Made by a program: the position numbers and the translations under genes
Source: a phage
NCBI GenBank assembly: GCA_025830695.1
Contig: GCA_025830695.1_4111.1
Strand: one strand, 5' to 3'
Length of the DNA stretch: 64,000 bases
Notes under the pieces: model-generated
Database searches by the model: none
Seen by the model: the letters and a program-made list of their open reading frames with translations, nothing else
Told to the model about the DNA's origin: nothing
Shown here: positions 2,163-64,000 of the stretch, in pieces
Layout of the letters: every line of letters begins with the position of its first letter
Numbering within the stretch: the stretch's first letter is position 1

Positions 2163-3565
<1,403 letters not shown>

Positions 3566-3650
3566 TGTTAATCTCCAATCTTATTGTTATTTTTATAAAG
3601 TATTTACCCAATTTTACGTTTTACATAGTTTATATGGAGAAAGAAGTAAT

Positions 3651-4953
<1,303 letters not shown>

Positions 4954-4980
4954 CTTGAAATGTATAAATCAGTCGAGGGA

Positions 4981-6324
4981 ATGATGAGTAAAATTAAGCT
5001 TACGGATAAGCAACAAGAAATCTTTGATGATTTTATAGATCGTGTTTACAACTATGCAGGTAAAACAATTTCAGTTTTATCTGCACCAGCAGGAACTGGA
5101 AAAACATTCACTACTGCTGAGATTGTAAAAGCACTATGTAAAAATTATAATATTGCAGTAACTTCACCTACACATAAAGCCAATGCTGTTATTCGTAATA
5201 TGCTAATTAATAATGCTGGTCTTACTAAGGAAGATGCACAAGTCAGTACTATACACTCTTTTTTAGGATTAAAATTAGTATATGAAAAGAATCGTCAAGT
5301 ACTGAAGCATGATCCACAAAGTAAAGTTAGTAATACTAACGTTGACATTCTTATTGTTGATGAGTGTAGTATGATTTCAGATGAACTATTCCAGCACATA
5401 CAAGACCAATTGTGGCGTGTCCGTCGAGCAGTTTTATTCATTGGTGATCGTTGTCAATTGCCTCCAGTTGAGTCAGAAGGAACAATGGGCGAGACTAAAT
5501 TGTCTCCTACGTTTGATGTACCTGTTCAATATGAGTTAACTGAGGTTTTACGACAAGCATTAGATAATCCGATTCTGGCAGTTGCAACTGCTATTCGTGA
5601 GTGTATTGGAACTAGTAAAAATCCATTTGATATTATGCACCAAACATATGGTTTAAGCACTATTACACCTATTGATGATGAAGATTTGTTTTTGAATGTT
5701 TATCGTGAATTCATTATGGAAAACAAGGGGTCATCTAAAAAAATATTTGATTTCGTAAATGAAAATAAAATCTTAGCATATACTAACTATAGAGTTAATT
5801 TGGCTAATATCTACATTAGAAGTCAACTATTTGAAGTACCAGATGAATTTACTAAAGGTGAGCCAATTGTTTTTGAAAGCATAACTGAGAATAGTCCATA
5901 TGTAGTACAACAAATTATACAATGTCCTGAAGTAAAACGTGAAAGTTTCATGGGAATAGATTGTTGGCAATTCCGTTTACCTAATGGTAGTTATATTTTA
6001 GGTGTAGGACCAGAAACAAGAATTGCAATGGACGAAAAACTTGATAAACTTGTTAAGGATATTGAGAAAAAAGAAATAAATCCATTGACAAAGAAACCAT
6101 ATATGTGGCAGGATTACTATGTAATTAAGAACAAATTACATATCATCAATTATCCTTATGCAACCACTGTTCATAAATCACAAGGAAGTACTTTTGATAA
6201 CATTTGGTTTGATACTGATTTTATTGAACGTATTGGTACAAATGATACTAAGTGTAGAATTTTATACACTGCCATGACACGCCCACGCTATAGTGTTATG
6301 TTGAGGCAAAATGCACGATTCTAA
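4981..6324 (+). CDS. Dda/RecD-like SF1 DNA helicase
   Basis: Walker A SAPAGTGKT, Walker B IVDECSM, C-terminal TVHKSQGSTFD. Start chosen after GAGGGA. Confidence 0.8.
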   Translation: MMSKIKLTDKQQEIFDDFIDRVYNYAGKTISVLSAPAGTGKTFTTAEIVKALCKNYNIAVTSPTHKANAVIRNMLINNAGLTKEDAQVSTIHSFLGLKLVYEKNRQVLKHDPQSKVSNTNVDILIVDECSMISDELFQHIQDQLWRVRRAVLFIGDRCQLPPVESEGTMGETKLSPTFDVPVQYELTEVLRQALDNPILAVATAIRECIGTSKNPFDIMHQTYGLSTITPIDDEDLFLNVYREFIMENKGSSKKIFDFVNENKILAYTNYRVNLANIYIRSQLFEVPDEFTKGEPIVFESITENSPYVVQQIIQCPEVKRESFMGIDCWQFRLPNGSYILGVGPETRIAMDEKLDKLVKDIEKKEINPLTKKPYMWQDYYVIKNKLHIINYPYATTVHKSQGSTFDNIWFDTDFIERIGTNDTKCRILYTAMTRPRYSVMLRQNARF

Positions 6325-6407
6325 AAGACTAAATGTTATACGTAAATATTTTTGATTTTTAATAATAAATAATCAAAAGTGTTTTGTATTATGGAGAAGA
6401 ATATACA

Positions 6408-6974
6408 ATGAACAATTTACTACAAGTATTTAAAATTGAAGTTGCAGGGACGAACCTAGATAATATCCCATATTATATGTATGGTGATTATGATTCATCT
6501 TCCCCAACAACCGCACCGACTGACCAGCAAACTATTGATAAGTCAATTGCACTTTTGCGTTACCTACAACTTTCTCGTTTGCTTTCAACTTATTCAGTAC
6601 CAGTTTATAGCAATGTTGAATTTGCTACACCAGGAACTGCAAAAACGATTCCAACTGGTGCAACAATCACCGTTGGATATATTAGTTATCAACCTTTTCT
6701 TAGTACTTTGAGTGTTGAAGAACAAGCAGCACTAACTACTGAAGATATGAAAACAGCAAAAGCTGCTGAGATTATCCAAACACTAATCAATGATTCATTG
6801 AAAGGTAATGGCACTAATGCACTAGAAAATGAAGAAATTACTGTACAAAAAACCATACAACGTATCAAGAATGCTCTTACTACGAGTACTGTTGATTTCA
6901 TTGAGTATGAGAACGTGTATCTTAATGTTCCTTCTGTTTCTGATGCATCTGTAGTATCTTACGTTAAATTATAA
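6408..6974 (+). CDS. Hypothetical protein
   Basis: Track ORF 6384..6974. ATG 6408 follows GGAGAAG. Confidence 0.6.
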   Translation: MNNLLQVFKIEVAGTNLDNIPYYMYGDYDSSSPTTAPTDQQTIDKSIALLRYLQLSRLLSTYSVPVYSNVEFATPGTAKTIPTGATITVGYISYQPFLSTLSVEEQAALTTEDMKTAKAAEIIQTLINDSLKGNGTNALENEEITVQKTIQRIKNALTTSTVDFIEYENVYLNVPSVSDASVVSYVKL

Positions 6975-6997
6975 TTTTATAACATGGAGTTCTTGAC

Positions 6998-7192
6998 ATG
7001 ACTGACAAAACATTTTATGATCGTATTATTGAAGACAAGGGAGTTTTTGATAAGGTAGTTTATGACCTAGAACTTATGATCAAAGACGCACCGAACCCCC
7101 GTGTGCGAACCCAAGCAGAATTTGCAAAAACTTATCTTGTTCAAGTTCAAGCAATCTGTGAAGCAATTAAAAAACACAATGATAGTGCTTGA
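6998..7192 (+). CDS. Hypothetical protein (64 aa)
   Basis: Track ORF with GGAG upstream. Confidence 0.55.
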   Translation: MTDKTFYDRIIEDKGVFDKVVYDLELMIKDAPNPRVRTQAEFAKTYLVQVQAICEAIKKHNDSA

Positions 7193-7217
7193 CAGAACTA
7201 ATGTTCTATCCTATAAT
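7189..7217 (+). promoter_or_regulatory. sigma70-like promoter
   Basis: TTGACA (7189-7194), 17 nt, TATAAT (7212-7217). Confidence 0.7.
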
Positions 7218-7261
7218 TACTATCGAACAAAACATTAAAATCATATTGGAGCTTTTATTAC

Positions 7262-8324
<1,063 letters not shown>

Positions 8325-8335
8325 AATATAGACTT

Positions 8336-10501
<2,166 letters not shown>

Positions 10502-10502
<1 letters not shown>

Positions 10503-11293
10503 TGCCAAGTAAGAGTAAAAGTCAGGCTAAATTCTTCGCAGCCGCCGCACACAATCCAGAATTTGCAAAGAAAGCTGGAATTTCACAAAGTGCTGCTAAA
10601 GAATGGAATGCCGCTGATGAAAAGGAAGGAAATCTTAAAAAAAGTTCTAAACTTCCTAATAAAGTAAAAGAAGCAAGTATGCGTAGTTTAGTCGATATTG
10701 TACAAGATGCAGAATTAGCTGATACAGACGACAGAACTTGTGATATAATGGATTCATGTGAAGACGACAAAGATAAGTTGGATGAAATGCCACAACGTTT
10801 CGATAGTTTTCAAGGTCAAGACCGAGACGAGTTTGTCGATAAAACTGCCGAAATGACAGGTAAGCACAACATGGTTAAGTTCGCAGAACATAAAGACTAT
10901 GATGTATATATGAACAAAAACGGTACTGGATTTATCGCTTACGATAAGTCTGGTAAACAGCTTGCTATAGTTAGTGGGCATTTATCCAATGATGCAGTAC
11001 TTGGTGTTCAAAACGTTTTTGAAATTGCCGCAACTGCTTCTAAAACTGGAACTAAAGGTATAATTTATAATATCTTTATGGATATGATATCACATGGTAT
11101 TAAAGTTCTGAGTGATAGTCTGCATACTGATGATGCGATTAAATTCTGGACCCGTTTAATTGGTTCCCATCAAGTTTATATTGTTGGTGGCGGTGAAGTA
11201 CTTGCAAAGGCGAGTCCAGATAAGGTTCATAAGTACTGGAGTGATGATGAATCAAGTCCAAGTGCCGAACTTCAACTTATGTTAGTAAAATAA
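10502..11293 (+). CDS. Hypothetical protein with DUF3008-like N-terminus
   Basis: MPSKSKSQAKFFAAAAHNPEFAKKAGISQSAAKEWN resembles the DUF3008 N-terminal signature as I recall it. TAATG overlap with the previous gene. Confidence 0.55.
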
Positions 11294-11296
11294 TAA

Positions 11297-11332
11297 TATA
11301 TCGGGACAAATCGTTCCGATATTTTTTTTTTT
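11297..11332 (+). terminator. Rho-independent terminator
   Basis: atatcgg...ccgatat stem followed by an 11-nt T-run. Confidence 0.75.
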
Positions 11333-11360
11333 GAGACAAACAAAACATTGGTGATACAAT
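11331..11360 (+). promoter_or_regulatory. sigma70-like promoter with extended -10
   Basis: TTGAGA (11331-11336), 18 nt, TGaTACAAT (11352-11360). Confidence 0.55.
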
Positions 11361-11394
11361 GTTTTATGACAAAGAGACATGATAAGGAATTCAA

Positions 11395-13359
11395 ATGGCT
11401 AAGAAAGAAAGTGCTGTTCTACAGGAACATGATGTTCAACGACTAAATGATTATCAACATGCTCGTTTGCGTACCGAGATGTATCTTGGTTCTCGTTCAG
11501 TGCATGAAAGTCAAGTACTGATTTTTGGCGAATCAGGTTATGAGGTTAAGAACGTAGAATGGGTTCCTGCAATTCTTACTGCTACACGTGAAATTATTGA
11601 TAACAGCTTAGATGAATTTAAAAAAGCTGGAACCAAAGAACCTGTTTTGAAAGTTGATTTCAATGAAGAAGAACTATCATTTGAAATTAGTGACAATGGA
11701 CGTGGTATTCCAATTGATTATGTTCCAGAGTATCAGAAAAACTTGTGTACTATGGTAATGACTGAAACAAAAACAGGCCGTAACTTTGACGATTCAAAAC
11801 GTGATGAAACGATTGGTCAGAATGGTTTAGGTGGTTCTGTTGCAATGATTGTCAGTTCTAAGGCAGAGTTAGAAATTCATCGCCAAGGTCGTCCGTATAA
11901 AACACAAAGTAGTAATGATGGTTATGATGGGTTTTATAAGTTCAATCAGAAGTTTGAGGAAGGAACTATTATGTTCCCTGAGCTTCATGTACACGAACCT
12001 ACTATTAGAAAGGTACAAACCGATAAAACTGGAACAACAATTCGTTTTACTTTGAGTAAAGAAGTTTTTCCAAACAGAAAACTACCAACCGAATTACTTT
12101 ATAGTATTCTTAAAGAAATGGCAGCAGCTAACCCAACTTATAAAATCTTTCTGAACGGGAAACGTATTGCTATTAAAGGAAACACTGAAAAAGCACTCTT
12201 CAATGCATCTAAATTAATGCAGTTGAATGTTAAAGATGATTCATTCAATTTTAACAGTACTTTTTATATTGTTCCTAATGCAGTAGCTGGCATGAACACG
12301 AATTTCCATATGCATGGGTTGGTTAACAATGCTCCTGCATTTGATGGTGGTACACATCTTGATACATTCAAGAAATTCTTCTCACTCGGTGTAGGAACTG
12401 CACTAGAGAAAGAATCTAAGAAACGTAGGATGAAACCTAATCGTTCTGATATTGAAGAAGGTTTGTTGATTTATAATGTCACAACTATGAAAGCACCTTC
12501 ATTCAACTCACAGATTAAATCTAAACTAACTAATGAAAACGTAATCCGTCCAATTCAACAAGCTATGAATACCGAATGGTTTGATGAATTAGTTAAGAAG
12601 AACAAAGAATGGGTTGATGAAATCTTCGAACGTTGTGCTGCCCGTACAAATAAGAAAGATGCAGAAGAAGATCGTCGCCTAGCAAAGAAACTTCTAAAAG
12701 GTAAAGTTGCAAAACTATTGGATAGTACTGGAACAGACCGTTCACAGTGTATTCTATTGATTGCAGAAGGTGACTCTGCAATTTCCAACATGGCTAGTGC
12801 TCGTATACCAAGTATTCATGGTATTCTACCATTGCGTGGGAAAATTATGAACGTCAGTGGTACTGAGAAAACCAAAGAATTAATGGATTCAATGGCTTTA
12901 CATGATATAATGGCTAGTATCAACTTAGTTCCAGGTGTTAAAGCAGAACGTTCTGAACTAAACTATGGCAAGCTTTACATCTGTGCTGATGAAGATGAAG
13001 ATGGGAAGAACATTGGTGCTCTAGTGTGTAACTTCTTATTTAAATTCTGGCCTGAATTGTTTCAAGACCCAGAAAATCCATTTGTGTATGTATTCAAAAC
13101 ACCATTTATCATTCTTGAGAAAGGTAAAGAATCAAAATACTACTATGGTCATAATGTGCATGAATATAACCCAGATGATTGGAAAGGCTGGAAAGCAACG
13201 CGTGCAAAAGGTTTAGGAACTTTAGAAAAAGCAAACTTCCGTGATGCATTCACTAATAGTGTTGCAGTAGCGATCACCGATGATGGCCGTCTTGGTGAAA
13301 CTCTTGATTTGATTTTCAACAAGAAACGTGCAGATGATCGTAAGAACTGGATGGAATAA
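11395..13359 (+). CDS. DNA topoisomerase II large subunit (GyrB-like ATPase + Toprim; T4 gp39-type)
   Basis: GHKL boxes EIIDNSLDE and DNGRGIP. Toprim LLIAEGDSA, PLRGKIMNV, ADEDEDG. Confidence 0.9.
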   Translation: MAKKESAVLQEHDVQRLNDYQHARLRTEMYLGSRSVHESQVLIFGESGYEVKNVEWVPAILTATREIIDNSLDEFKKAGTKEPVLKVDFNEEELSFEISDNGRGIPIDYVPEYQKNLCTMVMTETKTGRNFDDSKRDETIGQNGLGGSVAMIVSSKAELEIHRQGRPYKTQSSNDGYDGFYKFNQKFEEGTIMFPELHVHEPTIRKVQTDKTGTTIRFTLSKEVFPNRKLPTELLYSILKEMAAANPTYKIFLNGKRIAIKGNTEKALFNASKLMQLNVKDDSFNFNSTFYIVPNAVAGMNTNFHMHGLVNNAPAFDGGTHLDTFKKFFSLGVGTALEKESKKRRMKPNRSDIEEGLLIYNVTTMKAPSFNSQIKSKLTNENVIRPIQQAMNTEWFDELVKKNKEWVDEIFERCAARTNKKDAEEDRRLAKKLLKGKVAKLLDSTGTDRSQCILLIAEGDSAISNMASARIPSIHGILPLRGKIMNVSGTEKTKELMDSMALHDIMASINLVPGVKAERSELNYGKLYICADEDEDGKNIGALVCNFLFKFWPELFQDPENPFVYVFKTPFIILEKGKESKYYYGHNVHEYNPDDWKGWKATRAKGLGTLEKANFRDAFTNSVAVAITDDGRLGETLDLIFNKKRADDRKNWME

Positions 13360-13370
13360 TATAGACTAAT

Positions 13371-13393
13371 GGGGAACATGGTGTTCCCCTTTT
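13371..13393 (+). terminator. Rho-independent terminator
   Basis: ggggaaca-tgg-tgttcccc followed by tttt. Confidence 0.8.
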
Positions 13394-13409
13394 ACCAAGA
13401 GACAATGGA

Positions 13410-14822
13410 ATGGCTAAAAGTAAAAAAACAGAAAATCATAATATCGATAACCAAACACTAACTCTACTAGATTATAACAGTTCTGATTATGTGAATACAA
13501 CATCACTAGAATATTCGATGTATACACTAGACCGTGCTATTCCTGGAATTGATGGTCTAAAGAGTTCACAACGTAAAGCAATCTTCACATTATCTAAAAT
13601 TAGTGGGGAAATTAAAACAGTATCATGTGCTGGAAAAATGATTAGTGATGGTATCTATCTTCATGGGGACACGTCAGCATCGGGAACACTTCAAAATCTA
13701 GCATCTCCAGTAGCTAACAACTATCCTCTTATTGGAAAACGTGGTGGTTTTGGTACACAAGTAAACAGTACACCAGCATCTGCTCGTTACACTTATGTTA
13801 AAAAGAATAAGAGTACTGAGATGCTTGTTTTGCGTGATGCTGATATTATACCAATGAAAGAGAACTATGACGGGACAACATATGAACCTGTTCATTTCTT
13901 GCCTATTATTCCATTATCATTGTTTGGTAATGATAGTATGTCAGTTGGTTATAAGAGTACAATTCTACCACATAAAATTGAAGATATTATTGATAATTGC
14001 ATTCGTGCTATTGATAAAAAACCACTAAAAGAAATGACCCCATATTATGTTTCATGTGGTGCAAGTGATGTTGTGACTAAGCTTGATGAAAATAAGTATG
14101 AATTCTATGGTAAAGCTGAGGTTATTGATGCAAGCACTGTTAAAGTAACAGGCTTACCACCTAATTACAGTATTGAGAAATTCATCGAAAAACTAATCAA
14201 AATGAGTGATGATGGTGAGATTCGTGATTATGACAATGATAGTACTGATGTAATTGATATTACCATTAAACTTCCACGTGGAACGTCAGCTAAATGGACA
14301 GAGATGGATGTTATTGAGTATTTTGGCATTAACAAAAAAATGACTCAACATTTAACTGTTCTAGGTGAAAATGGCAAAGTGAAAGTTTACGATACTACGA
14401 TGGATTTGATTAAAGACTTCGTTGATTTCCGTTTCAAATATTACATCAAGCGTTATGAAAAGAAACTTGATGATTGTGCTGCTGAAGTTCGTTATAAAAT
14501 TCTAATTAAAGAATGTTTCGATAATGATATGATTGCTAAGGTAAAAGGATTTGCAAACCGTGCTGAAATGGTTGAATTCGTTAAATCGTTAAATACCGAA
14601 ATTGAAGCGACGGAAGAGAATATTCAAAGCATTGTAAACTTCCCTTCATATCGCTGGACGCAAGATAATTATCAATCAGTACTACAAGATATTCAAGATA
14701 ATCTTGATTTGATGGATAAGTACAATGAACTGTTATCTAATCATGACTTAATTTGGGACATTTATAAATCTGAACTAAAAGAACTAAGAAAGATTGACTT
14801 TACTCCTAAATCAGACAATTGA
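13410..14822 (+). CDS. DNA topoisomerase II medium subunit (GyrA-like cleavage-religation; T4 gp52-type)
   Basis: DGLKSSQRK and SARYTY (active-site Tyr context). Directly follows the large subunit. Confidence 0.85.
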   Translation: MAKSKKTENHNIDNQTLTLLDYNSSDYVNTTSLEYSMYTLDRAIPGIDGLKSSQRKAIFTLSKISGEIKTVSCAGKMISDGIYLHGDTSASGTLQNLASPVANNYPLIGKRGGFGTQVNSTPASARYTYVKKNKSTEMLVLRDADIIPMKENYDGTTYEPVHFLPIIPLSLFGNDSMSVGYKSTILPHKIEDIIDNCIRAIDKKPLKEMTPYYVSCGASDVVTKLDENKYEFYGKAEVIDASTVKVTGLPPNYSIEKFIEKLIKMSDDGEIRDYDNDSTDVIDITIKLPRGTSAKWTEMDVIEYFGINKKMTQHLTVLGENGKVKVYDTTMDLIKDFVDFRFKYYIKRYEKKLDDCAAEVRYKILIKECFDNDMIAKVKGFANRAEMVEFVKSLNTEIEATEENIQSIVNFPSYRWTQDNYQSVLQDIQDNLDLMDKYNELLSNHDLIWDIYKSELKELRKIDFTPKSDN

Positions 14823-46612: not shown

Positions 46613-46742
<130 letters not shown>

Positions 46743-46745
46743 AAT

Positions 46746-46846
<101 letters not shown>

Positions 46847-46848
46847 CA

Positions 46849-47009
<161 letters not shown>

Positions 47010-47013
<4 letters not shown>

Positions 47014-47170
47014 CACATGAAGAATGGATGAATGACATTAATTTTAGATATTCGGGTATCGGTAAATGGCTAAAGTATCATTGGGAATTCATTTCAGAGC
47101 CACATCTGTATGATAAACTTATCAACGATCCAGCATATGAAATGTACTTAATTGAACTACTGGTACGATT

Positions 47171-47174
<4 letters not shown>
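47010..47174 (+). CDS. MTHEEWM mini-protein family, copy 5 (54 aa)
   Basis: MTHEEWMNDINFRYSGIGKWLKYHWEFISEPHLYDKLINDPAYEMYLIELLVRL. The first ~55 nt are almost identical to copy 4. ATGA overlap. Confidence 0.6.
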
Positions 47175-47336
<162 letters not shown>

Positions 47337-47344
47337 AAAAAAAG

Positions 47345-47754
<410 letters not shown>

Positions 47755-47758
<4 letters not shown>

Positions 47759-47784
47759 CTAAATAATTCAGTACTGAGGATATT
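47755..47784 (+). promoter_or_regulatory. Second copy of the promoter cassette (weak -10)
   Basis: TTGACT (47755-47760) + AAATAATTCAGTACTGA. The best -10 is GATATT (47779-47784). Confidence 0.4.
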
Positions 47785-47815
47785 AATATGTTTAAAGATG
47801 AACGTCCAGATTTGT

Positions 47816-47853
<38 letters not shown>

Positions 47854-47859
47854 GAATTC

Positions 47860-48201
47860 CACAATCAGACGTATATGGTGTAAGTTACGTCGATGCAATC
47901 CAGAACAAGATCTCTGGTACTCTAGGAAGTGGTGAATGTTAACCTAGACGGGTTTGATAATTGGACGATAGGCAATTATTACTTGACTAGCAGGTTTAAA
48001 CTAGAGGTGACTATCCTTCACCAAACTGGAAAACCGGATGGACTTTTATTTAAAAGGGTAAGGCGTGGAAATATGTTTACAGAAGTTGCTTTTAGTAGCC
48101 TGTACGCCCCACGTCAAGGTAGCCGAAAGGCAAGTTAAGACGGGTGGTTATAAAGCTGAATTAACAGCGGCGTTTAAAAGCGTCACCATCCATTTTTTTT
48201 T
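47860..48201 (+). ncRNA. Candidate structured RNA or long structured leader (~340 nt), class unknown
   Basis: Lies downstream of a strong promoter and is locally more G+C-rich. No ORF with an RBS. Helices ggcgtgg/ccacgtc (48061-48067 with 48107-48113) and gcc-GAAA-ggc. Terminal stem gggtggt/accatcc (48142-48148 with 48185-48191) followed by T9. Confidence 0.35.
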
Positions 48202-48217
48202 AATTAAAGTTGGTGAT

Positions 48218-49027
<810 letters not shown>

Positions 49028-49051
49028 ACGAAATTACAATAGGAAATTAAA

Positions 49052-49237
49052 ATGCAACTTTTAATTCTTTCAATATTGTATATTATTATAATGGTTCCGA
49101 TATCAATACGTTTAATTACACTTGAACGATTTTTATCGAAACATGGAAATAGATCTATGATCTTAGTACCAATCGGGCTTATATTGTTTGGTATTTTTGC
49201 ATTTATAATGGGAATTAACGCTACATTCATTTCATAG
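49052..49237 (+). CDS. Small membrane protein (61 aa)
   Basis: Track ORF with two hydrophobic segments. AGGAAA upstream. Confidence 0.55.
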   Translation: MQLLILSILYIIIMVPISIRLITLERFLSKHGNRSMILVPIGLILFGIFAFIMGINATFIS

Positions 49238-49246
49238 GAAACAAAT

Positions 49247-49504
<258 letters not shown>

Positions 49505-49512
49505 GAATTTAA

Positions 49513-49914
49513 ATGAAAAAGAATGACTTGATCAAAATGCTTCAAGAAATTGACGGCAATCCAGAGATTGTTATTTGGAATGGATACGTCGATGATTATA
49601 TGAACATCGAAAAAGGCTTGACTAAAATCACTCTAGTCAAAGAAACCGAACAGTTTCTTCAGGGTGCATTAGAGCACGAATGGTGTGAACGTAACAATAC
49701 ATTCGACATTCCAGAAGACCAACGAACCAAGATTGCAGAACGTGCTAAAGAACTGCATAAGAAACGTGAATACGATTTCCAGAACCCATATGTCACTGAA
49801 GACGAATTCAATCGCTGGTACGGTAAAAAGAAATTGATAAAGTATGTCCTTTCACCTAAACTACGTGGTAAGACTTCACTTGGTGTATTCAACGCCGCAG
49901 ACTTAAACTACTAA
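49513..49914 (+). CDS. Hypothetical protein (133 aa)
   Basis: Track ORF with AGGAA upstream. Confidence 0.65.
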   Translation: MKKNDLIKMLQEIDGNPEIVIWNGYVDDYMNIEKGLTKITLVKETEQFLQGALEHEWCERNNTFDIPEDQRTKIAERAKELHKKREYDFQNPYVTEDEFNRWYGKKKLIKYVLSPKLRGKTSLGVFNAADLNY

Positions 49915-49926
49915 GAGAGTATTTAA

Positions 49927-50694
<768 letters not shown>

Positions 50695-50696
50695 TA

Positions 50697-50753
<57 letters not shown>

Positions 50754-50838
50754 AGTAAGAGTAAAAATGAAAGTAAGTAAAAAAACTACCAAGCAGCTTG
50801 AAGAACTTTGTAGTGCTGCACCTATGCCGACTCTTGGC

Positions 50839-50939
<101 letters not shown>

Positions 50940-50951
50940 TATCTTACTTCT

Positions 50952-51041
<90 letters not shown>

Positions 51042-62317: not shown

Positions 62318-63283
62318 GTGAAAAAGCTTGATTTAAATACAATTGCCGAAGAAGTTCTGGATGAATGTTTTGCTAATGAAGAAGTCAACACACTAGAAGC
62401 CTTAGATTTCGTTGAAGATAAAGATGATAATGAAGGTAAAGTACAAAGCAGTTTCAAATATAATATTACACTTAAGCGACCACCAAATGTTTCCAATGAA
62501 GATCTAATTCGTGATATTCAAGCTGGTATCAATGTAAAGAAAAACACTGAACTGTTAGTTCGTTACAATTATGGACTGATTATTGATGTAGCAAGTAAAT
62601 GTACTTGTTATATCCCATTTGAAGATAAGATTTCATATGGTGTTGAGGGGTTCATGAGAGCACTAAAAACCTTTGATCTTAATAAGAATGTTAAGTTCAT
62701 TACCTATGCTTCTTCTAGTATTTACATGACAGTCTATAACGAAAGTTCTGACGCTAACTATATGGTACACTTCCCACGTTATATGAGTGTTCATAAGATC
62801 AAAGTAAAAAGATTCTGCCAGGAATATATGCGTAAACATGGTGTTCGCCCAACACCTGAAATAATCTCAGAGGGTACTGGGATTGAGATTCAGCATGTTA
62901 ATAATTGTTTATTATTTCAAAGCGAATACACTTCACTGGATGCACCATTAGACGGTGTTACAGATGGTACATTAGGTGACATTATTCATTCACCTGCTTC
63001 TGATTTTAACCTCAATGTTGATAGTATCCGTGCACCTTTACGTTATGCTATCAATGAACTAACTAACGAATTGAGTACTAAAGAACGTGAGATTATCCAG
63101 CGTGTTCATGGTCTAGGTGAATATGAACCTGAAACGCTTCGTGAGATTGCTGATAATGGTTTTGTTGATGATAATGGAAAATATGTTAAATCCCGTTCAT
63201 CAATACACCGAAAGTACAGTGAAGCTATGCAAAAGCTTAAGAAGTTAGTACTTGCAAAAGGGTACGAATACGAAGATTTCTAA
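62318..63283 (+). CDS. Sigma-70 family RNA polymerase sigma factor
   Basis: Region-2-like YGLIIDVASKC...YGVEGFMRALKTFD...KFITYASSSIYMTVYN. Region-4-like LSTKEREIIQRVHGL...TLREIAD...SRSSIHRKYSEAMQKLKK. GTG start after AGGAGA. Confidence 0.7.
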   Translation: MKKLDLNTIAEEVLDECFANEEVNTLEALDFVEDKDDNEGKVQSSFKYNITLKRPPNVSNEDLIRDIQAGINVKKNTELLVRYNYGLIIDVASKCTCYIPFEDKISYGVEGFMRALKTFDLNKNVKFITYASSSIYMTVYNESSDANYMVHFPRYMSVHKIKVKRFCQEYMRKHGVRPTPEIISEGTGIEIQHVNNCLLFQSEYTSLDAPLDGVTDGTLGDIIHSPASDFNLNVDSIRAPLRYAINELTNELSTKEREIIQRVHGLGEYEPETLREIADNGFVDDNGKYVKSRSSIHRKYSEAMQKLKKLVLAKGYEYEDF

Positions 63284-63289
63284 AGAACA

Positions 63290-63316
63290 AGGGTTGGCTT
63301 ATGCCAACCTTTTTTT
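63290..63316 (+). terminator. Rho-independent terminator
   Basis: agggttggc-ttat-gccaacct followed by a T-run. Confidence 0.85.
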
Positions 63317-63317
63317 A

Positions 63318-63346
63318 TGGGATGAAGTAAAAGTTTGTGATATAAT
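63318..63346 (+). promoter_or_regulatory. Promoter, TGTGATATAAT class
   Basis: TGGGAT (63318-63323), 17 nt, TGaTATAAT (63338-63346). Confidence 0.65.
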
Positions 63347-63354
63347 TATCTTGT

Positions 63355-63830
63355 ACAATTCTGTTGGCATGATATTCATGTACCTGATCCACTCGAAAAC
63401 GTAGAGGGCAGTTGAGCAGTCCGACAGTGCGAACAGCAAAAGAAACCCGTTAGATGTGGGCATAGTTTGAACCCCTCACGGCAATGCGGCTGTATAAAGA
63501 ACCACGTTAGGATAGCTGGTGGTTCCTTGATAGACATATAAGGATAACACCTTACGAATTATCTAAGGGAGAGTTATCGAATTTTGTACAGGAAAGTTGC
63601 GTCCAAAATTTGAGTACTCACATTAAGTATTTGATTGCATAGATACTTAATGAAGATACACTATGTTTAAAAGTGTAGACCGTCATATGAAACTGAAGTA
63701 GAGAGAAACAGGATGACCCGCTTTCGCACTCGTTATGAGTAATCTTCAATGCAATAGCTCTGATACCATCAGCGTCAAATTTCCCTCCTTGTGGGGGGAA
63801 GAAAAATCCCTTCCTCAAATCCCGTCAATA
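63355..63830 (+). ncRNA. Candidate large structured ncRNA (~470 nt), class unknown
   Basis: Own promoter and no credible + strand ORF. Locally G+C-richer. Helices include gaaccac/gtggttc (63499-63527), nested gataac-cctta...taagg-gttatc (63543-63578), aagtat/atactt (63625-63648) and ttccctcc-ttgt-ggggggaa (63781-63800). The next promoter is at 63841. Confidence 0.4.
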
Positions 63831-63840
63831 TTAAAAGTCC

Positions 63841-63869
63841 TTGACAGTTATTAATCATTCGCGTAGAAT
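63841..63869 (+). promoter_or_regulatory. sigma70-like promoter
   Basis: TTGACA (63841-63846), 17 nt, TAGAAT (63864-63869). Confidence 0.65.
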
Positions 63870-63933
63870 ACGTAGTATTAGAAGCGAACAGACATCTCGA
63901 AGAGATGGATGATTAACCATTAAGGAATATCCA

Positions 63934-64000
63934 ATGAATTCAGTAATCTTTTTAGTAATAGCTTTTTCTGTTAATTCCGGTGTACAAATAACCCCAATGA
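63934..64000 (+). CDS. Start of a hypothetical protein with hydrophobic N-terminus (3' end outside window)
   Basis: ATG 63934 after TAAGGAA. MNSVIFLVIAFSVNSGVQITPM... runs off the window. Confidence 0.5.
   Translation, partial: MNSVIFLVIAFSVNSGVQITPM

Follow-up and report, generated by a model that had tools for sequence, protein, structure and literature searches.

The stretch of phage DNA analyzed here (contig GCA_025830695.1_4111.1, 64,000 nucleotides, hereafter the window) is part of a jumbo phage of the genus Asteriusvirus, of the 121Q/PBECO4 type, with 99.9% identity to phage SHEFM2K over an 801-bp query. Near its end, between the terminator of a sigma-factor gene and the next sigma-70 promoter, lies a unit at positions 63353–63829 of the plus strand that we describe as the gene for a large structured non-coding RNA (ncRNA). 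Comparison with its relatives shows that the locus specifies a conserved structured RNA, read from the plus strand, and we are nearly certain that it represents a new family of structured ncRNA genes. The best explanation, to which as a joint statement we assign a probability of about 0.6, is a stand-alone gene for a large ncRNA with several pseudoknots, which would be transcribed by the host RNA polymerase (RNAP) and would act in trans as a folded RNA. Taken separately, and by analogy with other large RNAs, action in trans as a scaffold, as a binder of ligand, protein or RNA, or as a catalyst seems somewhat better than an even bet.

The case for the fold rests on comparative evidence, because the minimum free energy of the single sequence is uninformative: the z-scores of −1.4 for the plus strand and −2.0 for the minus strand are unremarkable and do not distinguish the strands. 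RNAalifold applied to the first 16 sequences gave 69 base pairs, 35 of which carry compensatory double changes. The full collection contains 66 unique full-length sequences, 49 of them non-redundant (<96% mutual identity), and in alignment A2, which comprises 49 sequences, all column pairs were scanned for double-sided covariation and the seeds were extended into helices. The curated structure has 95 pairs in 19 helices, four of which are pseudoknot helices. Canonical pairs make up 97.0% of its cells, compared with 78.6% after column shuffling (0/500 shuffles reached the observed value) and 37–43% with slid partners, and its covariation score is 0.529, compared with 0.189 and ~0.09 in the same two controls. 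Double-sided changes occur in 70 of the 95 pairs, and all four pseudoknot helices are supported; the structure was built from the alignment that was used to score it, and these counts are therefore somewhat inflated. We nevertheless judge the signal to be real, because slid partners do not reproduce it and RNAalifold had detected it earlier and independently. G·U cells number 323 against 25 A·C cells, an excess which establishes the plus strand as the RNA strand.

The structured body (63353–63779, plus strand, ~425 nt) is conserved from a 5′ ACAAUUCUG to a terminal ...CAUCAGCGUCAAA, as delimited by a full-length nhmmer match, alignments A1 and A2, and covariation. It is predicted to fold into at least 17 helices held by four pseudoknots. 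In pseudoknot 1 (63361–63430, plus strand), the 5′-terminal CUGUUGGC at 63361–63368 pairs with 63421–63427 inside the loop of a 3-bp stem (63416–63418/63428–63430). The corresponding helix 1 of the alignment (5′-terminal CUGaUUGA) is double-changed in 8/8 pairs and 97.4% paired. In the same region, helix 3 is double-changed in 7/8 pairs and helix 4 is 100% paired, with pair 93-106 occurring as UA in 23, AU in 22 and CG in 4 sequences; the region also holds the P2 hairpin (63384–63411), whose loop is the conserved GAAAAYGUA. P3 (63433–63437/63489–63493) surrounds P4 (63447–63456/63475–63481), and these elements, helices 5 and 6, contain the invariant blocks GAAACCCG and CACGGCAAUGCGGC. Pseudoknot 2 (63484–63537) joins the AUG at 63484–63486, within the invariant CAAUGCGGC, to the CAU of the invariant GAUAGACAUAUAAGG at 63535–63537, which lies within the invariant GAUAGACAU; its helix 7 is 100% paired, pair 188-249 being GC in 36 and AU in 13 sequences. 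It spans the P5 hairpin (63499–63525), and helix 8 of that region is double-changed in 6/6 pairs. A fifth long-range contact connects the P5 loop (63510–63511) with 63563–63564, just 5′ of the invariant UAAGGGAG, and spans the P6 hairpin (63539–63554). Its pair 214-279 appears as UA in 22, GC in 21 and AU in 5 sequences and is canonical in 49/49, and the contact was modelled as only two pairs because the alignment of the loop is noisy.

The 3′ half of the body begins with P7 and a hairpin module (AUUUUGUACA..GUCCAAAAUUUGA) at 63571–63619, which correspond to inverted repeat I1 and helix 11. Other members have the module here, at an alternative site after P11, or at both sites (A2 columns 317–352 versus 486–520), and it looks like a relocatable peripheral domain for tertiary contacts. 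In the window it covers 63581–63613 and has the conserved loop UUUGUACAAUAUAGAUCCGUCCAAAAUUUGA; both insertion points are filled in copy C of phage 121Q. The loop shares UACAAU with the 5′ end of the RNA and with the partner strand of pseudoknot 3. P8, a long 12-bp hairpin (63621–63652), presents the loop AUUGCAU (63634–63640), which forms pseudoknot 3 (span 63621–63755) with AUGCAAU at 63749–63755, immediately 3′ of P10; this helix 13 is double-changed in 7/7 pairs and 99.4% paired. P9 (63656–63678) is followed by pseudoknot 4, in which GUUGC pairs with GCAAC inside the P11 loop (63682–63686/63713–63717), and by P10 (63694–63698/63744–63748), P11 (63701–63725) and P12 (63728–63740), all on the plus strand. 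Helices 12 and 14–18 are 96.8–100% paired. The loop–strand helices 9 and 13 could form within one molecule or between molecules. Dozens of unpaired nucleotides are also invariant, and a candidate pairing of the invariant GAUAGAC with 3′ CUAUC/GUC motifs was rejected for want of covariation support.

An initial annotation, made from the letters of the window, had pointed to four helical segments in this locus. Three of them reappear with covariation support, 63499–63527 as P5, 63625–63648 as P8 and 63781–63800 as the hairpin of the tail described below, while the nested segment at 63543–63578 was right only in part, as P6. The same annotation had named in advance two observations that would speak against an RNA, a translated protein from either strand and codon-like conservation among homologs in place of compensatory changes; both comparisons favour an RNA, since compensatory changes are what the homologs carry, codon-like conservation is absent, and neither strand has a conserved reading frame.

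The signals around the body define a separate gene. On the 5′ side, the sigma-factor gene (62318–63283) ends in an intrinsic terminator (63289–63316, plus strand) made of a 10-bp stem (63289–63312) and a T-run, and a terminator is annotated at the equivalent site in phages G17 and UE-S1. The RNA gene has an extended −10 promoter, TGATATAAT (TGaTATAAT; 63338–63346, plus strand), which can be read directly in the sequence, and the RNA probably starts at ~63353–63355. The motif TGnTAnAAT is kept in 65 of the 66 unique family members, 7–45 nt upstream of the conserved 5′ ACAAYYCUG, and in 52 of these a −35-like TGAAAC is present ~17 nt further upstream. A promoter of the type TGAAAC-N17-TGnTATAAT suggests that the RNA is transcribed by the host sigma-70 RNAP. 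Because the promoter is of this host type, expression would be early, with the host RNAP acting from the start of infection; in uninfected cells that carry chromosomal copies, this promoter would presumably function as well. On the 3′ side, the unit is bounded by the sigma-70 promoter of the next gene cluster (TTGACA-17-TAGAAT, 11/12 matches; 63841–63869, plus strand), and the next gene on the same strand begins at ~63935. The ~520 bp between the sigma-gene terminator and this promoter have a G+C content of 42–45% versus about 30–33% in its flanks. The equivalent gap is unannotated in 121Q and G17, and part of the locus is labelled 'repeat_region' in the UE-S1 record.

Copy D of 121Q lies on the plus strand between the minus-strand genes for endonuclease VII and the baseplate hub, and since its flanking genes are on the minus strand it must be a transcription unit of its own. 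Together with the covariation, the conserved promoter and the bounding terminator and promoter, this orientation supports what the initial annotation had proposed, namely an independent transcription unit for a structured RNA of ~470 nt; the terminator, the two promoters and the raised G+C content on which that proposal drew are all present. Its overall extent also stands, with the refinement that the structured body stops near 63779 and that a separate tail hairpin and motif reach 63829. In 28 of the 66 members, the end of the body (...CGUCAGA) is followed, ahead of the tail, by a strong hairpin and U-run terminator. The window copy has no intrinsic terminator between body and tail or before the next promoter. 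In the B-type syntenic paralogs (L006:42760–42835, L015, L016, L017, L021 and L022), a strong hairpin with a U-run occurs a few nucleotides after TGnTATAAT, and the conserved start comes only afterwards; this element is either the terminator of the upstream gene nested in the 5′ leader of the RNA or an attenuator.

We found no conserved open reading frame (ORF) on either strand. Between members, the longest stop-free stretches fall on different strands, in different frames and at different places; their median length is 75 aa, compared with 66 aa in shuffles, and column variability shows no period-3 signal (p = 0.2). A coding reading, through the 66-aa minus-strand ORF at 63618–63818 or some other small ORF, draws on the presence of that ORF in the window and on several GenBank records that place hypothetical proteins under the match. 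However, nearly all of 48 relatives carry stops or frameshifts within the minus-strand ORF (in the 91% identical UE-S1 ortholog there is a stop at codon 3), the open stretches are no longer than shuffled ones, and the substitutions in helices are compensatory, so we regard the chance that the region is protein-coding as negligible. The ORF is judged spurious, there is no credible plus-strand ORF, as the initial annotation had also noted, and the locus encodes no protein. In the records of SHEFM2K, E9.1, JP4, WPEC3 and similar phages, two to six 'hypothetical proteins' are annotated over the RNA loci. The comparative data indicate that these are spurious calls, which can now be corrected in many GenBank records.

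The RNA also matched no known family. The 4227 models of Rfam 15 include GOLLD, ROOL, OLE, HEARO, raiA, RNase P, tmRNA, 6S, group I and II introns and small ribozymes. At gathering thresholds, the whole window gave only five tRNAs, all outside the RNA locus; the 801-nt region at E ≤ 10 gave only chance hits (11–20 bits, compared with gathering scores of 37–111), and 11 diverse members at E ≤ 0.5 gave nothing except an unrelated TPP riboswitch. An ARAGORN search for tRNA and tmRNA genes at 63000–64000 returned 0 genes. The caution of the initial annotation in assigning no class was thus correct, since the cmscan search against Rfam 15 gave nothing. Several specific identities were considered and rejected. 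The RNA is not a group I or II intron because no gene is interrupted: its flanks are a terminator and a promoter rather than exons, and Rfam gave no intron hit. It is not a retron msr-msd RNA, as no reverse transcriptase is annotated beside any of the four 121Q copies. By eye, GAUGAG...GAAA recalls a hammerhead core, ACAGA..ACCCGCUU RNase P CR-V, AGUACGA the sarcin-ricin loop and UAAGGGAG a Shine-Dalgarno mimic, but these likenesses agree neither with the pairing nor with the Rfam results and were dropped. Full-text searches of the literature, which took in the fEgEco12 and UE-S1 genome papers and a survey covering 10,006 structured-RNA motifs of viruses, turned up no account of this RNA. Relative to Rfam 15 and the searchable literature, it is a new RNA class.

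To define the family, 50,697 phage records were searched with blastn. Members were found in 62 phage genomes, all jumbo phages of the GAP32/121Q/BF type, at 253–275 places, which corresponds to 4–5 diverged paralogs per genome. The hosts of the RNA are Asteriusvirus, Mimasvirus (GAP32, CBB, XbC2), Eneladusvirus (BF, pEa_SNUABM, Yen9-04) and the Munch/7t3 Salmonella phages, together with fENko-Kae01, XaC1 and new Erwinia phages. In distant genera the identity is ~66–76% over the region that matches window 63383–63830, where an annotated feature is nearly always absent. In the complete 121Q genome the RNA occurs four times (90.3, 192.8, 247.5 and 326.6 kb), always on the plus strand in gaps free of coding sequences, with 55–112 kb between copies; the 64-kb window contains no second copy. 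Paralogs occupy syntenic positions across genera, and every member of the jumbo phage clade strictly keeps 4–5 copies, which suggests an important role in the infection cycle of these phages, more than 80% of whose genes have no known function. A degenerate motif made from two invariant blocks, CGGCRAYRCGGC-N35-65-GATAGAYRTWTA, recovered a further 58 metagenome and 40 IMG/VR loci, and an nhmmer profile identified 86 of these 98 as true members. The other 12, like 6 of 8 loci from GTDB, are chance matches with no nhmmer hit and no other family motifs. Scans of IMG/VR with Asteriusvirus-specific motifs gave 0 and 2 matches, and both of the latter (L013, L014), without other family motifs, are also due to chance.

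Copies of the RNA are also present on bacterial chromosomes. Among 5426 complete E. coli genomes searched with blastn, two chromosomes carry a copy, on the same island in both: E. coli LR-29-1 (NZ_AP027515.1; L122:6959–7546) and, identical to it, NZ_CM130020.1. This copy is full-length, with promoter, body, terminator and tail (profile E = 1e-123). The surrounding gap, 1.4 kb long and unannotated, belongs to an island of ~10.5 kb (the LR-29-1/EEC_W5 island), which is located between ffs and ybaA (L122 ~2957–13440) and carries an IS3-split integrase, a DuOB/DUF488/DUF4326-mSLOG cluster (the PADLOC candidate PDC-M45A) and a serine recombinase; it may be a defence island or a satellite. A scan of GTDB added two hosts. 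One is Citrobacter amalonaticus P55 (L127:3519–4119), where a prophage-like element beside ppdD-hofB holds the copy between a large serine integrase, which directly precedes it, and a cI-like repressor. The other is an Enterobacteriaceae metagenome-assembled genome (L125:6426–7034), whose copy adjoins a cI-like repressor beside thiM. The Citrobacter-type element is also found on metagenome contigs L030 (623–1225) and L075 (5174–5778), and L025 (571–1173) has a closely similar copy of the RNA. The collection of plasmids contained no copy.

The chromosomal copies retain 86–90 of the 95 pairs and share no more than 80.6% identity with any phage copy. The proteins that flank the RNA on the E. coli island (303, 257 and 118 aa), examined as candidate protein partners, have no homologs in the jumbo phages of the family, and the 257-aa protein shows no relationship to the 264-aa one encoded downstream of an Eneladusvirus copy. 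Intact but diverged copies between unrelated flanks imply that the RNA cassette moves and survives alone, and we conclude that the RNA has been exchanged horizontally between jumbo phages and chromosomal islands. Its presence in islands that carry defence genes points to a role in phage–host conflict. The RNAs of the temperate-type elements form a distinct subfamily, in which a 520-aa serine integrase immediately precedes the RNA and a 165-aa gene and the cI-like repressor come after it. On L075, a type II-A retron (reverse transcriptase and NDT) lies ~3 kb from the RNA on the opposite strand, and a 118-aa protein is common to the Citrobacter-type element and the E. coli island.

The tail that follows the body is conserved in its own right. 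Its hairpin, UUUCCCUCC-UUGU-GGGGGGAAG (63780–63801, plus strand; helix 19), has the family form UUCAUUCCCC-UGC-GGGGGGAUGAA and a folding energy of −11 to −20 kcal/mol in all 49 members; because its 5′ arm varies solely between C and U opposite G, the pairing is constrained as plus-strand RNA. The conserved motif CAAAUCCCGUCAAU (63816–63829, plus strand; CAAAUCYCGUCA(G/A)UA across the family) consists of invariant columns and repeats the 3′ end of the body, AUCAGCGUCAAA. The two CGUCA(G/A) sites, one at the 3′ end of the body and the other at the end of the tail, change together (columns 564 and 654), with A in Asteriusvirus and G elsewhere. A run of six G residues in the tail is invariant. In copies from Mimasvirus and Eneladusvirus (e.g. 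L010:1940–2075, L121, L114 and L118), the tail is followed by a conserved GTRTTRAACRTA and then by TTGAC-[4-5-nt stem]-GAA-[stem′]-GGCAA. The stem halves of this element covary, and it could be a promoter spacer hairpin or a ribosome-binding-site hairpin; it is absent from the window copy.

As a stand-alone gene acting in trans, the locus would work as follows. The RNA would accumulate as a stable folded particle, not as an mRNA leader or a DNA site. Pseudoknot 1 would tuck the 5′ end into a hairpin loop and thereby shield it, the 3′ end would carry the terminator or the GC-rich tail hairpin, and the 4–5 paralogous genes would supply a high dosage. As an RNA of the same general type as ROOL and GOLLD, the particle might then serve as a structural or scaffolding RNA, bind a ligand, a protein or another RNA, or possibly act as a catalyst. 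We favour action in trans because the cassette is independent of its neighbours, is found in repressor-controlled elements as well as in virulent phages, and in copy D is oriented against the genes around it.

ROOL and GOLLD are large ornate RNAs of phages and prophages that cryo-electron microscopy has revealed as RNA-only homo-oligomeric cages (PMC12286853). The RNA described here resembles them in its size of several hundred nucleotides (here >400), its many helices and pseudoknots supported by covariation, its lack of an ORF and of an obligate protein-gene neighbour, its own promoter and terminator, and its occurrence in phages and integrated elements (62 phage genomes as well as chromosomal elements). 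However, it has no homology to them in sequence or structure, i.e. no credible Rfam hit; and it is present as 4–5 diverged paralogs per genome in enterobacterial jumbo phages. ROOL and GOLLD are also frequently adjacent to tRNA genes, whereas no tRNA gene adjoins the four 121Q copies. In the window, Rfam places a cluster of five tRNAs at 46652–51030, the nearest (50958–51030) ~12 kb upstream of the RNA, and a remark in the initial annotation on nearness to tRNA genes therefore does not apply. The nearest experimental precedent comes from the Pseudomonas jumbo phage PA5oct, in which RNA-seq identified four ORF-free plus-strand ncRNAs of 236–619 nt (ncRNA001–004), two of which are highly transcribed throughout infection, at up to ~5% of phage reads (PMC7318152). 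PA5oct is a distantly related jumbo phage whose RNAs are likewise ORF-free, on the plus strand and of comparable length. A comparison at the sequence level (PA5oct as L023) gave no nhmmer hit and found no family motifs in ncRNA001 and ncRNA002, and the candidacy of these two as sequence homologs was dropped for lack of similarity.

Several observations weigh against a trans-acting RNA gene, in addition to the inflation of the pair counts noted above. The start, the 3′ end and the stability of the RNA are all inferred from its sequence. The window copy has no terminator, and its transcript may therefore run into the downstream genes or require processing. Tails are kept even downstream of terminators, which the model of an RNA gene does not explain. 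Finally, paralogs at ~70–80% identity stay at syntenic positions across genera without homogenisation, and for such long-kept, diverged copies a position-dependent role in cis is more natural than plain dosage.

One such role is that of an origin or primer RNA. The transcript would form a persistent RNA–DNA hybrid where the GGGGGG of its G-rich tail meets a C-rich template, the hybrid would prime leading-strand synthesis by a T4-like replisome, a 350-kb genome would have its origins at the 4–5 copies, and a copy on an island would let an infecting jumbo phage replicate the island in the way of a satellite. Phage T4 has about five origins, some of them transcript-dependent, and 121Q encodes T4-type replication and RNase H proteins. 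The dispersal of the copies over 121Q in one orientation regardless of neighbouring genes, the synteny of the paralogs, the invariance of the G6 run and the copies on small integrative islands would all fit. The RNA shares with ColE1 RNA II and the T4 origins oriF and oriG a promoter-driven non-coding transcript of a few hundred nucleotides with a G-rich segment, and several copies fit the multi-origin logic of T4. It differs from them in that 28 of the 66 members place a strong terminator between the body and the G-rich tail, and in a fold of at least 17 helices and four pseudoknots with invariant unpaired bases, which is far more constrained than known primer RNAs need. Neither an AT-rich unwinding element nor iterons are evident, and the cumulative GC skew of 121Q simply tracks gene orientation and does not bend at the four loci; in phages with recombination-based replication, skew tests for origins only weakly. 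The Citrobacter-type host element, moreover, resembles an ordinary temperate element with its own repressor. On balance we consider an origin function improbable.

Processive antitermination is a further possibility in cis, in which the nascent fold, as a leader RNA, would modify its own polymerase and allow read-through of the adjacent terminator and of those in the following gene array. Here the comparison is with HK022 put and Bacillus EAR, since copies A, B and C of 121Q are placed directly after a strong promoter and, often through a terminator, before a long same-strand array, and the Citrobacter element shows the order integrase, RNA, 165-aa gene. The tail hairpin is kept at the RNA level even past terminators, which implies that some read-through matters, and by analogy with PA5oct these phages rely on the host RNAP. 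But copy D faces ~1 kb of minus-strand genes to which it is antisense, the downstream genes have strong promoters of their own (63841–63869 in the window; in other genera, TTGAC motifs), and a body of 425 nt is several times the size of any known antitermination RNA, five to six times larger than put or EAR. Such a function is unlikely. We are also doubtful of a self-processing ribozyme that would cleave or ligate at the duplicated ...AUCNNCGUCA(G/A) motifs and thereby set the 3′ end or free the tail. The joint change of the two CGUCA(G/A) motifs, the many invariant unpaired nucleotides, the pseudoknot-rich architecture, which is typical of ribozymes, and the need of the terminator-free window copy for another route to its 3′ end speak for it, but no Rfam ribozyme model matched, no gene is interrupted, the hammerhead and CR-V likenesses fit neither the pairing found nor the covariance models, and chemistry is not readable from sequence. 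A trans-acting RNA gene remains our preferred explanation.

Large, intricately folded classes of bacterial and phage RNA are rare, and earlier ones have opened new biology, as with RNase P, group I and II introns, and the HEARO/omega RNAs; ROOL, GOLLD and OLE are now known to form cage-like assemblies. More tentatively, and at less than even odds, the present class may be a mobile 'RNA gene cassette' (promoter, ~430-nt body, optional terminator and tail hairpin) that takes part in conflict between phage and host or between phage and island. It would then be shared by virulent jumbo phages, in 4–5 copies, and by defence-carrying integrative elements of their hosts. In the jumbo phage it could be a required RNA-only assembly or ribozyme, or an anti-defence sponge, and in the island a decoy, or a handle for a satellite that exploits a jumbo phage helper; we are aware of no described satellite of this kind for jumbo phages. 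The system is tractable: the RNA occurs in cultivable phages of E. coli, Salmonella and Erwinia; it has a clear sigma-70 promoter and natural paralogs; and its fold is already defined, with at least 17 helices and four pseudoknots, by ~50 diverged sequences.

Outside the window and distinct from the copies of this RNA, the 121Q genome has a further stretch of ~2 kb without annotated coding sequence (135195–137160; L005:35195–37160), which gave no Rfam hit at E ≤ 0.1 and which follows a run of ~17 small paralogous genes.

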